From a virus (Duplodnaviria > Heunggongvirae > Uroviricota > Caudoviricetes), in the IMG/VR virus record IMGVR_UViG_3300035696_001272: a stretch of 61,399 bases of DNA; one strand, written 5' to 3'. The notes under the pieces were generated by a model. It worked only from the letters and a program-made list of their open reading frames with translations. It made no database searches and was not told the DNA's origin. Numbering within the stretch: the first letter of the stretch is position 1; each line of letters starts with the position of its first letter. This document shows positions 9,182-61,399 of this stretch, one piece after another. The position numbers and the translations under genes were made by a program.

Positions 9182-9415
9182 ATGGAAAATCCTGCAACTT
9201 GGACTCCACTTCATTGGGAAATTCACAACGCATTTTATCACACCATAGATGGTGCAACATCAATCCTTAAGGTATTGCATGCCCATAACTATCGAGTAAC
9301 TCTTGATCAAGTTCAAGCAGTTATCAATCGACACAATGAAAATGAACAACTTCAAATTGCTGGATTGTCTCTGCCATCCATGATCGTTAACGCTTTAGCA
9401 CAGATAGAGGGCTAA
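9182..9415 (+). CDS. hypothetical protein
   Basis: 77-aa ORF coupled to the next gene. Confidence 0.65.
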   Translation: MENPATWTPLHWEIHNAFYHTIDGATSILKVLHAHNYRVTLDQVQAVINRHNENEQLQIAGLSLPSMIVNALAQIEG

Positions 9416-9825
9416 TGAAACGTATAGGTGTTGCTGGCCTTATCAAAAGTGATAGGTACGATATTCTTTTAGGTCGTCGTGGCAAAGATCCTAACCGTGG
9501 CATGTATGTCATGCCTGGTGGTGGGGTCAATGATGGTGAATCGCTAGAAGAGGCTTTTAGGCGAGAAATATTGGAAGAAACAGGGCTGGAGGTTGAGTCA
9601 ACAGTTGGATATTCACGCTGGGAACTTCCGCATCTAATTGAGCTACCCGATCGTATTATACTGGTAGCTCAAGCATCAGTTAAAGGTGATACTACTCCAA
9701 AGAGTGGAAGCGATCTCTATGATGTGGCTTGGTTTGATTACTTCAATTTGCCGCATGATATATCTCCCGTAATCGCACCGACCCTAGCCATGTATGGTTA
9801 CCGCCCAGGGAAGAGACATGAATAA
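9415..9825 (+). CDS. NUDIX hydrolase
   Basis: Nudix box GGGVNDGESLEEAFRREILEETGL. Confidence 0.92.
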   Translation: MKRIGVAGLIKSDRYDILLGRRGKDPNRGMYVMPGGGVNDGESLEEAFRREILEETGLEVESTVGYSRWELPHLIELPDRIILVAQASVKGDTTPKSGSDLYDVAWFDYFNLPHDISPVIAPTLAMYGYRPGKRHE

Positions 9826-10594
9826 TATCGTCATTTTTGCTCTTTATTTGCCATCTTTAGACAAGAAATTTGTTTTAGATGAAATAGCAGATTACTTTTG
9901 TAAGTACTGCCCCAATGCCAAAATTTATGTTGGTATTCAGGGAAATAGTATTCCAGAAGCAGAAGATTTGCTTGATGGCATGAAAGATCGTCTTTCTATC
10001 AAATATAAGAGAGTTATACCATCGATGGTTATTAACTCAGATGCGTCTGCTTTCTTGGCGGGACTCGAAGCTTATAAAAATGATGGTTGTCCTGAAAACG
10101 ATCTTTGTTATTTCGTTCACTCAAAAGGAATAACATCAAACAATGATCCTCTTCGTAAAGAGATGTATGATTTATTGTTCTCAGATTTGGGAGTAAAGGC
10201 TTTTGACGACCCTCAAGTAGGCTCCTATGGTCCCTATATTACATTTACGGATGTATTGATCGATATCAAAAAACTTCAATGCATGGGTATTTTTAATGCC
10301 AATTTGAAATATAAGCCAATGCATTATTACTACATAAATACTTTTTTCATTGTGCGCGGCTCAATAGTTAAAAGCTTCATGGAAACAGTATCTGAGAAGT
10401 TATTTACGACTCCAATTCATTTGTATTCAGATCGTTGGCTCTTTGAAAGAGACTTTTCGCACATAGCGGATATGATGGGGTACTTGCCCTCGTATCAAAT
10501 GTACCATGGAAACTATTCTACAAACTATAAAACTCCAACAAGAGACGATTTTGATAAGAAATTATCACTCTTCAAAAAGGTAAACGGATTATGA
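9818..10594 (+). CDS. glycan-synthesis-like protein (RgpF-like)
   Basis: CYFVHSKG motif; ATG 9818. Confidence 0.5.
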   Translation: MNNIVIFALYLPSLDKKFVLDEIADYFCKYCPNAKIYVGIQGNSIPEAEDLLDGMKDRLSIKYKRVIPSMVINSDASAFLAGLEAYKNDGCPENDLCYFVHSKGITSNNDPLRKEMYDLLFSDLGVKAFDDPQVGSYGPYITFTDVLIDIKKLQCMGIFNANLKYKPMHYYYINTFFIVRGSIVKSFMETVSEKLFTTPIHLYSDRWLFERDFSHIADMMGYLPSYQMYHGNYSTNYKTPTRDDFDKKLSLFKKVNGL

Positions 10595-11514
10595 ACAAGA
10601 TTGCTACATTAGTTGGCTGTGCTATTGGTGATGCCCTAGGTAATCCTTTTGAAATGAAACCTGCCATCAGCCCTTTACTCAAACAGTGGGATGGTCAGTT
10701 CAAAGAGGGAGGAACCTTCTGGAAAGGTCAGCCAGGTCAATACACAGACGATACTCTAATGAGCATTGCTCTCTCAGCCTCTTTAATAGAGAAGGCCGGA
10801 TTTGACCCAGAAGATGTCTCTATGAAGTACTTAGCCTGGATGGAATCGGGTAATACCCGTGGTATTGGCGGAACTACCGCCGCAGCTTTAACTAACATCA
10901 AGTTTGGTGCTACCTATCTTGAGAGTGGTCTTAAGCTCAATCCAGACGGTTTACCAGTTGGTGGTAATGGTACGGCCATGAGAGCGTCACCTATTGGGTT
11001 ATACTACCGCAGTGACTTCGTTAAGTTGATGGAATGTGCTATGATGGATGCCACTATCACCCATAACTCTCATGAGCCTAAGATGGGTTCAGTGGCGGTT
11101 GCATTGGCAACGGGCTTCTTAGCCAACGGAACTCATTCTAATGTTGGTGTTCTAGCTGAAGTTAGAGACATCATTTCTGATTCTATAGTGAAAGATAAGC
11201 TGACTCTGGCTGAAAAATTATGGGAGGACAATCTAGACCCGGTGCAGGCCCTTGCGCAGATCGGGACGGCTGGTTATGTTCCCGAAACTGTTGGGGCAGC
11301 TTTCTATTGTTTGGTTGCCACCAATAATTTCAAGGATGCTGTAGTGATGGCTGTTAAAGGTGGTGGTGATACTGATACTACTGCTGCAATAGTTGGAGCT
11401 ATGGCAGGAACTTATTATGGCCTTGAAGGAATTCCATCTGAATATAAAGATCAAGTCGAAAACTTCCAATTATTGCAAGATTTGACTGATGAACTTGCTA
11501 ATAACGGGATATAA
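10591..11514 (+). CDS. ADP-ribosylglycohydrolase (DraG/ARH family)
   Basis: GDALG, YTDDT, GNGTAMR, GGDTDTTAAIVGA. Confidence 0.95.
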   Translation: MNKIATLVGCAIGDALGNPFEMKPAISPLLKQWDGQFKEGGTFWKGQPGQYTDDTLMSIALSASLIEKAGFDPEDVSMKYLAWMESGNTRGIGGTTAAALTNIKFGATYLESGLKLNPDGLPVGGNGTAMRASPIGLYYRSDFVKLMECAMMDATITHNSHEPKMGSVAVALATGFLANGTHSNVGVLAEVRDIISDSIVKDKLTLAEKLWEDNLDPVQALAQIGTAGYVPETVGAAFYCLVATNNFKDAVVMAVKGGGDTDTTAAIVGAMAGTYYGLEGIPSEYKDQVENFQLLQDLTDELANNGI

Positions 11515-11526
11515 TATATACGATAC

Positions 11527-11618
11527 GGAAGGTTGGCCGAGAGGCTGATGGCGCTTGTTTGCTAAACAAGAGATCCTGTAAAAGGGGTCCACAGGTTCGA
11601 ATCCTGTACCTTCCGCCA
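11527..11618 (+). tRNA. tRNA-Ser(GCT)
   Basis: Long variable arm, loop TT-GCT-AA, CCA. Confidence 0.95.
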
Positions 11619-59687: not shown

Positions 59688-59701
59688 TACTACATTCTCG
59701 T

Positions 59702-59923
59702 ATGAGAAGATGGTTAATTGTTCTAAGTTTATTATTATGCAATTGTGACGGCCAATTTTGGCTGACTCCTATTGGACATCGTGCATTTTATCGAAGCAAA
59801 AACGGACAGTTATCTTGTTACACAAATAATTGTTGCTGGCCATATAAAGAGAAATTGATGATTTGCACTGAAGCCCATCTTGATGATGTCGCCGTGTCAA
59901 TAAAATTCGTTCCTGAAAAGTAA
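59702..59923 (+). CDS. small putative lipoprotein
   Basis: Signal-like N-terminus, Cys-rich. Confidence 0.55.
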   Translation: MRRWLIVLSLLLCNCDGQFWLTPIGHRAFYRSKNGQLSCYTNNCCWPYKEKLMICTEAHLDDVAVSIKFVPEK

Positions 59924-59948
59924 TTTTTGTCGAGAAAAAGTTTAATTC

Positions 59949-60176
59949 ATGTCATTTAAAAGTGAAGATGAGACAGTAGCATTACGGGAGCGTAGTGGTA
60001 CTGTTCAGATCAATAGTAGACTGGTCAGTTTCCTTTATGAATTAATGAGGGATCACTTACCGGTAGGCATAGTCGAAGAATTAGTTCAAGCATCAAAAGA
60101 ACCTGACGTTACTTATACTAACGGCTGGCTCGCTAAGTATGCACAAGATTTAGCTAATCGTTTAAAAGATCAATAA
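59949..60176 (+). CDS. hypothetical protein
   Basis: 75 aa, LVSFLYELMRDHLP. Confidence 0.7.
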   Translation: MSFKSEDETVALRERSGTVQINSRLVSFLYELMRDHLPVGIVEELVQASKEPDVTYTNGWLAKYAQDLANRLKDQ

Positions 60177-60185
60177 GAGGATAAT

Positions 60186-61399
60186 ATGGCGTTAAAGACC
60201 TTTGATGAGGGGAAGGAACCCTCGTTTCCATCTAACTATGAAGTAACTGTACGTACCACACTCAACTTCACAGACGTGATGAAGAACAACAACAAGTTTT
60301 ACAATCTAGAAGTTCAGGTTGCCAAGAGTGGCGAAGCTCGTATCTATACACAATACGGTCGAGTTGGTGGAACTGTTGCTAAAGAATATCGCATTGCTGA
60401 TGATCGTGCCCACGCTGAAAAGGAAGCTGGCAAGATTATCAACAGCAAAACTAAAAAAGGTTATGTGGAAGTCAAGCTTGTCAAGGCTGACGTGGGCTCT
60501 GATGTGGGTAAGTCTAAGGTAGATAATACTGCTGTGTCAGTAGACGCCCTTAAGAAGGCCGGTGTACAGGTCACAGAAGAGCCTGCATCGGTCAGCAAAC
60601 TACATTCAGAAGTCCAAGACTTGGTTAGAACGTGGTTCGGTGTTACGCAGGAGTTCATTGAATTGAACCTCGACACCAAGAAGTGCCCACTAGGTCAACT
60701 TTCTTTGGATCAGCTAACTAAGGGTCGTGATATTCTTGAGGAAGCTCGTAAGATTATCCACATGGCCAAGCCTGATCAGAAGGAGCTGAACAAGCTAACC
60801 AACCTTTACTACTCCAACATTCCTCACAATTTCGGTTATCGTAAGTTAGATGCCGATGCTTTGCGCCTAGATGCTGACGATAAGCTCGATAAGGCTTTCG
60901 ACATTCTAGATGTTTTCAGTGATGCTAAGAATGTTCAAGCCGTTATCTCCAAGAAGAGCGCAGTTGATTCTCAGTATGCAACTTTGAATGCTGAGTTGGA
61001 GTTCGTAGATCCTAAAGATCCTACCTGGAAGTGGATCGATGCAATGGTTCATGAGACCAGGGCAAGCAATCACGGTTCCTTGGGCAAGTTGAAGACTCAT
61101 AAAATCTTCCAAGTTAAGCGTAATGGTGAAGATAAGCACTTCATTGAAACCGCTGAACGCATTGCCAAAGAATGTGGTAGGTTTGTGCCATCTGATGTCT
61201 ATGCTTCTTTGGTTAAGAAACGTCCAGATGTTCCCAAAGCCTTACAAGACCTCTACCAAAGAGCTAACGTATTGCCTGGCTGGCACGGAACTCGTCGAGC
61301 TAACATGATTGGTATTACTACCAAGGGATTGTTGATTCGTCCATCTGGTGTTATCCATGCTGGCAGCATGTATGGTGATGGTATTTATTGGGCTGTTCA
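60186..61399 (+). CDS. poly(ADP-ribose) polymerase-like protein, WGR + regulatory + catalytic domains (partial; missing from ORF track)
   Basis: GAGG SD, ATG 60186, open to the window end; NNNKFY...YGRVG (WGR), PLGQLS and YYSNIPHNFG (regulatory), WHGT and GSMYGDGIY (catalytic). Confidence 0.92.
   Translation, partial: MALKTFDEGKEPSFPSNYEVTVRTTLNFTDVMKNNNKFYNLEVQVAKSGEARIYTQYGRVGGTVAKEYRIADDRAHAEKEAGKIINSKTKKGYVEVKLVKADVGSDVGKSKVDNTAVSVDALKKAGVQVTEEPASVSKLHSEVQDLVRTWFGVTQEFIELNLDTKKCPLGQLSLDQLTKGRDILEEARKIIHMAKPDQKELNKLTNLYYSNIPHNFGYRKLDADALRLDADDKLDKAFDILDVFSDAKNVQAVISKKSAVDSQYATLNAELEFVDPKDPTWKWIDAMVHETRASNHGSLGKLKTHKIFQVKRNGEDKHFIETAERIAKECGRFVPSDVYASLVKKRPDVPKALQDLYQRANVLPGWHGTRRANMIGITTKGLLIRPSGVIHAGSMYGDGIYWAV

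Follow-up and report, generated by a model that had tools for sequence, protein, structure and literature searches.

The subject of this analysis is a 61,399-nucleotide stretch of DNA from a tailed phage (IMG/VR record IMGVR_UViG_3300035696_001272), here called the window, and its genes for the metabolism of nicotinamide adenine dinucleotide (NAD+) and ADP-ribose. We consider it fairly probable that these genes form three separately inherited groups, namely an NAD+ salvage cassette, a lone gene of the ADP-ribosylglycohydrolase (ARH) family, ARH-A, and a group composed of LigA, PARP, Macro-like and NADAR genes, and not one proven cycle. An earlier reading of the sequence alone had described a complete set for NAD+ supply and for writing and erasing ADP-ribose in a single phage segment: nicotinamide phosphoribosyltransferase (NAMPT), a NadM-Nudix enzyme, a second Nudix hydrolase, two ARHs, the NAD-dependent ligase LigA and a PARP-like writer. 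All these genes were found, and their Pfam domains and catalytic motifs look intact. They do not, however, make up one segment: they lie in three clusters separated by 29 kb and 8 kb, with translation genes between them. Nor was the set complete, as two DUF6939 genes have to be added and, past the end of the window, a Macro-like gene, a NADAR gene, a SLOG gene and a second PARP.

The source of the window is a huge soil phage of about 477 kb that has not been cultivated. One of its proteins is on record on a contig of 476,653 bases, several have homologs mainly in Uroviricota clusters, and close relatives of its PARP occur on viral contigs in IMG/VR that reach 481 kb; no DNA near-identical to the window was found in the phage collection (deposited phages) nor, with exact patterns, in IMG/VR. 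A 188-kb metagenome contig from ENA (L001) is 100% identical to the window over the last 13,735 bases and extends 7 kb beyond it. For the comparison of the cassette we used eight large contigs with a close relative of the window PARP, G001-G008. The relatives overall come from few lineages, several contigs are incomplete, and the detection of neighbours by BLAST overlooks divergent Macro domains.

The NAD+ salvage cassette

The cassette occupies 39.6-47.6 kb of the window; its features and its right flank are the following (aa, amino acids; E, expectation value).

39602..39683, + strand: terminator-like hairpin, then a promoter-like site; left edge of the cassette
39803..40510, + strand: orf235, first gene of the cassette, 235 aa, inside the block absent from G003
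40557..41594, + strand: NadM-type bifunctional nicotinamide mononucleotide (NMN) adenylyltransferase/Nudix enzyme (ADP-ribose pyrophosphatase type); PF01467 and PF00293
42126..43601, + strand: NAMPT of the NadV type; NAMPT_N and NAPRTase domains
43870..44436, + strand: DUF6939 paralog a, 188 aa, NADAR-like; PF22075, E 8.7e-6
44720..45283, + strand: DUF6939 paralog b, 187 aa, NADAR-like predicted fold; PF22075
45280..45933, + strand: 217-aa protein, double-stranded beta-helix (Fe/2-oxoglutarate dioxygenase-like) predicted fold; phrog_1843 (about 1,875 homologs), no Pfam hit
46421..47347, + strand: ARH-B, ADP-ribosylglycohydrolase family, 308 aa, last enzyme of the cassette; PF03747, E 1.3e-72; DDT at 52, GGDTDT at 250
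47621..49111, + strand: UvrD-type helicase, right flank; PF00580 and PF13361

The route for rebuilding NAD+ that the sequence-only reading had proposed is well supported. NAMPT and NadM-Nudix are 47% and 36% identical over their full length to NadV and NatV of Vibrio phage KVP40, respectively, NadM lies 0.5 kb upstream of NAMPT, and of 80 viral NAMPT loci, 71 have a NadM gene at a distance of at most 10 kb. The match of NAMPT to a bacterial NAMPT (7YQO) had an E of 1e-167 and that to human NAMPT 1e-124; the HDFG, EHS and RPDSG active-site motifs are retained, and the score against NF006629 was 634 bits (cut-off, 405). NadM-Nudix aligned over its full length with the bifunctional enzyme of Synechocystis (2QJO, E 6e-106) and reached 440.8 bits against the NCBIfam equivalog NF003791, the cut-off of which is 409. 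NAMPT would convert nicotinamide and phosphoribosyl pyrophosphate to NMN, and the adenylyltransferase domain of NadM would then form NAD+ from NMN and ATP, which is the NARP2 route; the Nudix domain, of the ADP-ribose pyrophosphatase type by its family name, probably splits free ADP-ribose. Such a route would sustain NAD+ when host defences destroy it and would feed the NAD+ users of the phage, LigA and two PARPs. In addition, NadM could re-adenylate the NMN released by LigA, as the established chemistry of both enzymes implies.

We found that the cassette is an insertable block of about 8 kb, inherited separately. Its genes and the helicase (40557-49111) are tightly packed, with stops overlapping starts. 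The gene order in G003 is otherwise the same, but there the homolog of the gene at 38565-39581 is followed directly by the UvrD-type helicase, and orf235, NadM, NAMPT, both DUF6939 genes, the 217-aa gene and ARH-B are all absent as one block. At the left edge lie a strong terminator-like hairpin at 39602-39636, with a 15-pair stem and a T run, and a promoter-like TTGACA-16-TACAAT sequence (11/12) at 39656-39683; these promoter and terminator calls are consensus matches only. The only two exact TTGACA-N16-TACAAT sites of the window (39656-39683 and 55644-55671) precede the cassette and the LigA group. A promoter shared by the two groups was nevertheless rejected, since 18 of 100 shuffles also gave at least two such sites and relatives do not conserve those of the window. 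No Pfam or PHROG match was obtained for orf235, and the small open reading frames (ORFs) of the cassette are likewise without a family.

The two DUF6939 proteins, which are 47% identical to each other, are NADAR-like by their predicted fold and form a separate family by sequence. Among solved structures, the top three matches of the paralog b model (pLDDT 97.9) were all NADARs, 8BAT (Z 8.9, root-mean-square deviation 4.3 over 151 residues), 2B3W (Z 7.1) and 8BAU (Z 6.9), with the next match at 3.9. In the family E51 is invariant and K58 nearly invariant, and their E-x6-K spacing is that of the catalytic E36 and K43 of T4 AdfN; family members are fused to NADAR, DUF4326, SLOG and 2H domains. 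There was no match of DUF6939 to the Pfam NADAR sequence model, and a profile comparison with hhalign, using a small NADAR alignment of five sequences, was negative, with a probability of 0.1. The neighbouring 217-aa protein was considered as a further NAD enzyme, for which we found no support, its fold being dioxygenase-like: the best matches of the model (pLDDT 94.3) were HygX, EvdMO1, CytC3 and similar proteins (Foldseek E about 5e-4, TM-score 0.3-0.44), and an HHDD motif and H172 are invariant.

It seems likely that ARH-B and the two DUF6939 proteins cut ADP-ribose from some acceptor. As they are inherited with NAMPT as one block, they could destroy small immune signals, for example the glycocyclic ADP-ribose of the Thoeris TIR protein, whose ribose-ribose bond resembles that of poly-ADP-ribose, so that the cassette would block NAD+-depleting defence twice, by removal of the signal and by refilling of NAD+. 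The domain fusions of DUF6939 point in the same direction, as does a published survey in which the network is assigned to low-molecular-weight ADP-ribose derivatives (PMC9503650), and a NADAR, Macro-like or DUF6939 gene occurs near NAMPT in 8 further loci of the 80 (9/80 with the two ARH-B loci counted). The same survey argues, however, that viral ARG domains favour macromolecular adducts; no report of an ARH cutting Thoeris signals was found in the literature, and an ARH adjoins NAMPT in only 2 of the 80 viral NAMPT loci, both from the lineage of this phage. We regard the removal of such signals as very unlikely.

We also noticed several peculiarities of single genes. The HxGH adenylyltransferase motif of NadM reads HNAH (HLGH in the Synechocystis enzyme). 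The identity of NadM to most close relatives checked was 54-58% (67% in one), lower than that of NAMPT (72-86% in most, lower in few), and for this reason NadM may have been replaced via gene transfer. In G001 (384804-386189) and G002 (95212-96609) the NAMPT gene contains a single in-frame stop, TAA in the former and TGA in the latter, and the ARH-A-type gene of G001 (405624-406446) is split into two open frames; taken together with the absence of NadM from G001, this suggests decay of salvage genes in some lineages, or recoding. The UvrD-type helicase of G003 (L220 12516-14996; G003 66515-68995) is a single frame of 831 aa, the halves of which align to residues 2-254 and 252-496 of the window helicase; the roughly 330 aa inserted between them may be an intein or stem from a homing endonuclease.

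The LigA-PARP group

The third group begins in the window and continues past its end.

55745..57619, + strand: LigA, NAD-dependent DNA ligase with a BRCT domain; PF01653, PF03120 and PF00533
57665..58471, + strand: calcineurin-like metallophosphoesterase, 268 aa; PF00149, E 1e-12; phrog_1649
60186..61399, + strand: PARP, first 404 of 500 codons; WGR, helical regulatory and catalytic domains
L001:14702-15178, past the window end, same strand: Macro-like gene, 159 aa; phrog_335, E 1e-16

LigA lies 2.5 kb upstream of PARP. Its score against TIGR00575 was 452 bits (cut-off, 444), and it has KLDG at residue 100, an N-terminal Ia-like segment and adenylation, OB, HhH and BRCT domains; for the metallophosphoesterase that follows, no solved relative was found by sequence. 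The full-length PARP of 500 aa was obtained from L001 (12522-14024), with PF05406 at 24-96, PF02877 at 137-262 and PF00644 at 284-464. The third residue of the catalytic triad, E474, which lies beyond the window, was thereby supplied, and the PARP-like writer of the earlier reading proved to be complete. In the alignment with human PARP1 (E 3e-30) its H and Y correspond to H862 and Y896, and the H-Y-E triad (H367, Y401 and E474) is invariant among three phage PARPs. This PARP2/3-like protein probably senses DNA breaks and adds ADP-ribose, since its WGR and regulatory domains match those of break-activated enzymes and the adjacent ligase fits breaks in phage DNA.

Downstream of PARP, at 0.7-1.5 kb, come the Macro-like and NADAR genes. 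The NADAR gene exceeds the cut-off of its family. For the 159-aa gene there was no Pfam hit at E 0.01, and four weak matches to solved structures were obtained (E 0.07-0.15), one of which is titled a macrodomain protein; the other three, although their titles do not say so, we take to be macro-like as well. Its Atlas feature score was 0.96 to clusters in which 24-41% of the members carry a Macro domain. The neighbourhood is well kept: of the 22 loci that contain a close relative of this PARP, 21 have the Macro-like gene, 17 have NADAR, and 17 have LigA within 6 kb. The Macro-like and NADAR proteins would be the likeliest erasers of the PARP product; the part of the genome that was searched, the window with its 7-kb extension, showed no PARG gene.

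A sister clade (L050) and one distant lineage (L054) likewise have LigA near PARP, which hints at a eukaryote-style DNA-break circuit inside a bacterium. PARP, switched on by nicks or ends in phage DNA, would mark these or nearby proteins, LigA and the phosphoesterase would repair them, Macro-like, NADAR or ARH proteins would reset the marks, and NAMPT and NadM would supply NAD+. We think a circuit of this kind quite improbable.

Further downstream of the PARP-Macro-NADAR genes there are a YpsA-type SLOG gene, an isocitrate lyase, a malate synthase, the second PARP (466 aa), a GNAT acetyltransferase and a small cytidylyltransferase-like gene (including L128 11341-15703). In unrelated viral contigs (L058, L069, L076 and L081), homologs of the 429-aa gene at 6491-7780 and of the Thg1-like gene at 52289-53086 lie a few kb downstream of distant PARPs; this hints at a neighbourhood of PARP and tRNA repair in another phage lineage. 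An ORF of LR756511 (L031:7752-9317) was considered as a second PARP and rejected on alignment.

The ARH genes and their relation to PARP

The first ARH lies near the beginning of the analysed genes, behind two smaller ones.

9415..9825, + strand: small stand-alone Nudix hydrolase, 136 aa, generic MutT-like; PF00293, E 8e-18
9794..10594, + strand: GT-A glycosyltransferase-like protein, 266 aa; no Pfam hit, assigned from its Atlas model
10591..11514, + strand: ARH-A, ADP-ribosylglycohydrolase family, 307 aa; PF03747, E 4.6e-68; DDT at 53, GGDTDT at 258

ARH-A and ARH-B are 39% identical, both belong to phrog_6572, and both match PF03747 over the full length. Their DDT and GGDTDT motifs, which form the two-metal site, were aligned to the same motifs in solved ARHs. 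Both stayed far below the curated cut-offs of named ARH subfamilies: the DraG model gave 127.5 and 96.3 bits (cut-off, 337), the Tri1 model 118.5 and 107.7 bits (cut-off, 490). ARH-A forms a clade of its own in the ARH tree. It occupies the same site in G003, G004, G007 and G008, there without the small Nudix or the glycosyltransferase-like gene; as ARH-A alone is kept in these four relatives, a conserved three-gene unit was rejected, and the other two genes were inserted in this phage and are no partners of ARH-A. The 266-aa gene was also tried as a hidden ADP-ribosyltransferase, which was rejected because its Atlas model resembles RgpF/GT2-type glycosyltransferases (TM-score 0.6-0.68). The small Nudix has a perfect Nudix box, its closest solved relatives are plant NUDT1 and MutT-type enzymes, and it stays under every NCBIfam cut-off. 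Its sequence marks it as an ordinary MutT-like enzyme that has no particular connection with ADP-ribose, and its inclusion among the ADP-ribose enzymes could not be upheld. ARH-A thus appears as a conserved lone hydrolase.

The ARH-B gene behaves in another way. An ARH-B-type gene lies 0.75-3 kb from NAMPT in all six NAMPT-bearing relatives (G001, G002, G004, G005, G006 and G007) and is absent from the two without NAMPT (G003 and G008). Because it is present only where NAMPT is present, it seems that ARH-B travels with NAD+ salvage and not with PARP.

This bears on the reversible ADP-ribosylation cycle which the sequence-only reading had ascribed to the phage. In its integrated form, one or both PARPs would modify phage or host macromolecules, the two ARHs would be the dedicated erasers, and salvage would chiefly fuel the cycle. 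As a single unit the cycle was not borne out, and we consider it unlikely: the ARHs lie 13.8 and 49.6 kb from PARP, ARH-B tracks NAMPT (G008 has PARP but neither ARH-B nor NAMPT), ARH-A stands alone, and the genes beside PARP are the Macro-like and NADAR genes instead. The PARP of XacN1 occurs without an ARH. Searches of the phage collection gave 2 records with a PARP homolog and 29 with an ARH homolog, and 26 of the 27 different ARH-bearing phages (28 of the 29 records) have no PARP. What did stand is some link between PARPs and hydrolases. An ARH was present in all 8 large contigs with a close PARP relative; of 19 large contigs whose PARP is more distant, 8 have an ARH and 11 lack it. In six of these eight distant contigs it was located 3-8 kb from PARP, and five of the six (G011, G012, G014, G015 and G021) form one distinct ARH clade together with LR756511 (98/96 support). 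In G009 an ARH-A-like gene lies directly upstream of LigA, 4.7 kb from PARP. When NADAR was counted as well, an ARH or NADAR gene was found within 8 kb of PARP in 10 of the 19 more distant contigs.

Several points weigh against the separate inheritance of three groups. The relatives used for the cassette comparison belong to one phage clade, so that 6/6 against 0/2 stands for few independent events, and G003, in which the whole block is missing, is 83% complete (G008, 97%). The NARP2 pair is not constant, G001 and G004 keeping NAMPT without NadM. In addition, ARH was commoner with PARP than in the controls, which were NAMPT-bearing large contigs with the own lineage excluded (n=21; a clear PARP was seen only in an excluded own-lineage contig): 8/19 against 3/21 for the distant contigs (p 0.078) and 16/27 against 3/21 for all (p 0.003, Fisher). 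Finally, an ARH-PARP link may exist, as another clade has its ARH 3-8 kb from PARP. For near-complete genomes only, the enrichment had a p of 0.05 (Fisher). PARP-bearing contigs are larger than the controls and many are interrelated, so genome size and shared ancestry confound the comparison, and we consider the enrichment suggestive, not decisive. A cycle of PARP and ARH in this phage is plausible. The observations support the view that phage PARPs often keep a hydrolase nearby, and in this phage it is the Macro-like and NADAR genes that hold this place.

The frequency of ARH in phages without PARP would also fit a role of the erasers as counter-defence of the orphan-antitoxin type, directed against ADP-ribosylating toxins of the host such as DarT-type DNA modifiers or RNA and protein ADP-ribosyltransferases, with PARP acting separately in phage DNA repair or host take-over. 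It is known that phage NADARs (T4 AdfN and others) strip DarT1 adducts and overcome DarTG1 (PMC11257639), that NADARs reverse guanine ADP-ribosylation, and that ARH and Macro proteins reverse phosphate-end ADP-ribosylation of nucleic acids (PMC11833690). Several unrelated hydrolase families are found at several sites, as a broad shield predicts. Against this, the Macro-like and NADAR genes stay beside PARP across close relatives, and the recurrence of ARH or NADAR near PARPs in other lineages suggests that some hydrolases serve the writer; moreover, no matching host toxin can be named. On balance we find this explanation possible but doubtful. The hydrolases could reset the phage's own marks, strip adducts of host toxins or cut small ADP-ribose-derived signals. 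The reading we prefer is that of three gene groups, whose genes, intact motifs and joint inheritance were observed; from these we infer their activities, their targets and any coupling beyond the shared NAD+.

The remaining genes of the window are of a different nature. The + strand of the 61.4-kb window is densely coding. Between the NAD gene groups there is a translation toolkit with EF-G, EF-Ts, a PheRS-type synthetase subunit and a PTH2 peptidyl-tRNA hydrolase (18034-20118, 28339-29298, 53308-54429 and 50433-50945) and 21 tRNA genes; Thg1 is also encoded in the window. Some genes are eukaryote-flavoured, namely a fusion of a DnaJ domain with a Ser/Thr protein kinase (14908-15906), a 123-aa SET-domain protein (50955-51326) and two Kelch-repeat proteins (25393-26346 and 49114-50379). 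The 225-aa ORF at 11837-12514 has a GTG start overlapping a predicted tRNA-Trp (11887-11960), and as its relatives align to the later part alone, the true start is probably downstream.

Comparison with known phage and cellular systems

The NAMPT and NadM genes resemble NARP2 of KVP40, in which an NAMPT-type transferase and a bifunctional NMN adenylyltransferase/Nudix enzyme carry out the same two reactions, and the same counter-defence role is proposed; NadV and NatV of KVP40 overcame Thoeris and DSR2 (preprint 10.1101/2024.02.11.579819). In KVP40 the two genes are about 43 kb apart, whereas in the putative system described here they are close together, in an 8-kb cassette with further genes for an ARH, a dioxygenase-like protein and a pair of NADAR-like proteins. 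In surveys, NadV was present in 33% of jumbo phages and NadM occurred only alongside NadV; ARG domains were seen in about 5% of jumbo phages, NADAR genes next to NadM and NadV, and PARPs in a few jumbo phages, XacN1 among them (PMC9503650, PMC7824862). The 'NAD-jumbo phages' described in 2024 combine NAD+ synthesis with LigA and PARP (PMC11662467). The phage studied here is like them in having its own NAD+ synthesis together with the NAD+ users LigA and PARP, and differs in combining unusually many of these genes: two PARPs, two ARHs, Macro-like, NADAR, two DUF6939, SLOG, NARP2 and LigA. No mention of an ARH inside an NAMPT cassette was found in the literature on NAD-jumbo phages and on the viral NAD+/ADP-ribose network (PMC11662467, PMC9503650, PMC7824862).

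The PARP shares the catalytic H, Y and E and a [W/Y]GR motif with the PARPs of XacN1 (BBA65562.1) and LR756511, at only 23-31% identity. In LR756511 an ARH follows the PARP at a distance of about 4.2 kb, whereas XacN1 has a PARP and no ARH; by BLAST, no LigA, ARH or NADAR homologue lies within 8 kb of the XacN1 PARP, and its neighbours are unlike those in the window. As in human PARP1, PARP2 and PARP3, the WGR, helical regulatory and catalytic domains follow in this order and the H-Y-E triad is present, and as in the setting of PARP with ARH3, PARG and TARG1, hydrolases (ARH, Macro-like and NADAR) are encoded in the same genome. Unlike the human enzymes, the phage PARP has neither zinc fingers nor BRCT, and it would work in a bacterial host.

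Among the hydrolases, the downstream NADAR and, by fold, the DUF6939 proteins are stand-alone phage NADAR-fold proteins like T4 AdfN; unlike AdfN, DUF6939 escapes the NADAR sequence model and occurs fused to true NADAR domains. The ARHs have the fold and the metal-binding motifs known from the DraT/DraG and Tre1/Tri1 systems, but no cognate transferase adjoins them, and with 96-128 bits they fall outside both subfamilies. They also differ in their distance to PARP from writer-eraser pairs encoded in operons (DraT/DraG, DarT/DarG); the Macro-like and NADAR genes do show such adjacency and co-inheritance.

NAD toolkits, PARPs and ARHs of jumbo phages have already been published, and neither the individual parts nor the general idea is new. 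The analysis makes modest additions, which are the ARH inside an insertable NARP2 cassette, the NADAR-like fold predicted for DUF6939 and the recurring closeness of ARH and NADAR genes to phage PARPs. It establishes no new principle, and its value is that of a rich set of candidates with clear limits. In the struggle of bacteria with phages, NAD+ depletion and ADP-ribosylation are weapons of central importance, and nearly every known class of NAD+ and ADP-ribose enzymes is gathered in this one phage genome. The phage thus offers test cases for the contribution that ARH and NADAR-like proteins may make to NARP2 counter-defence, for the role that a PARP2/3-like protein may have in a bacterial cell, and for the question of which hydrolase erases the PARP product.

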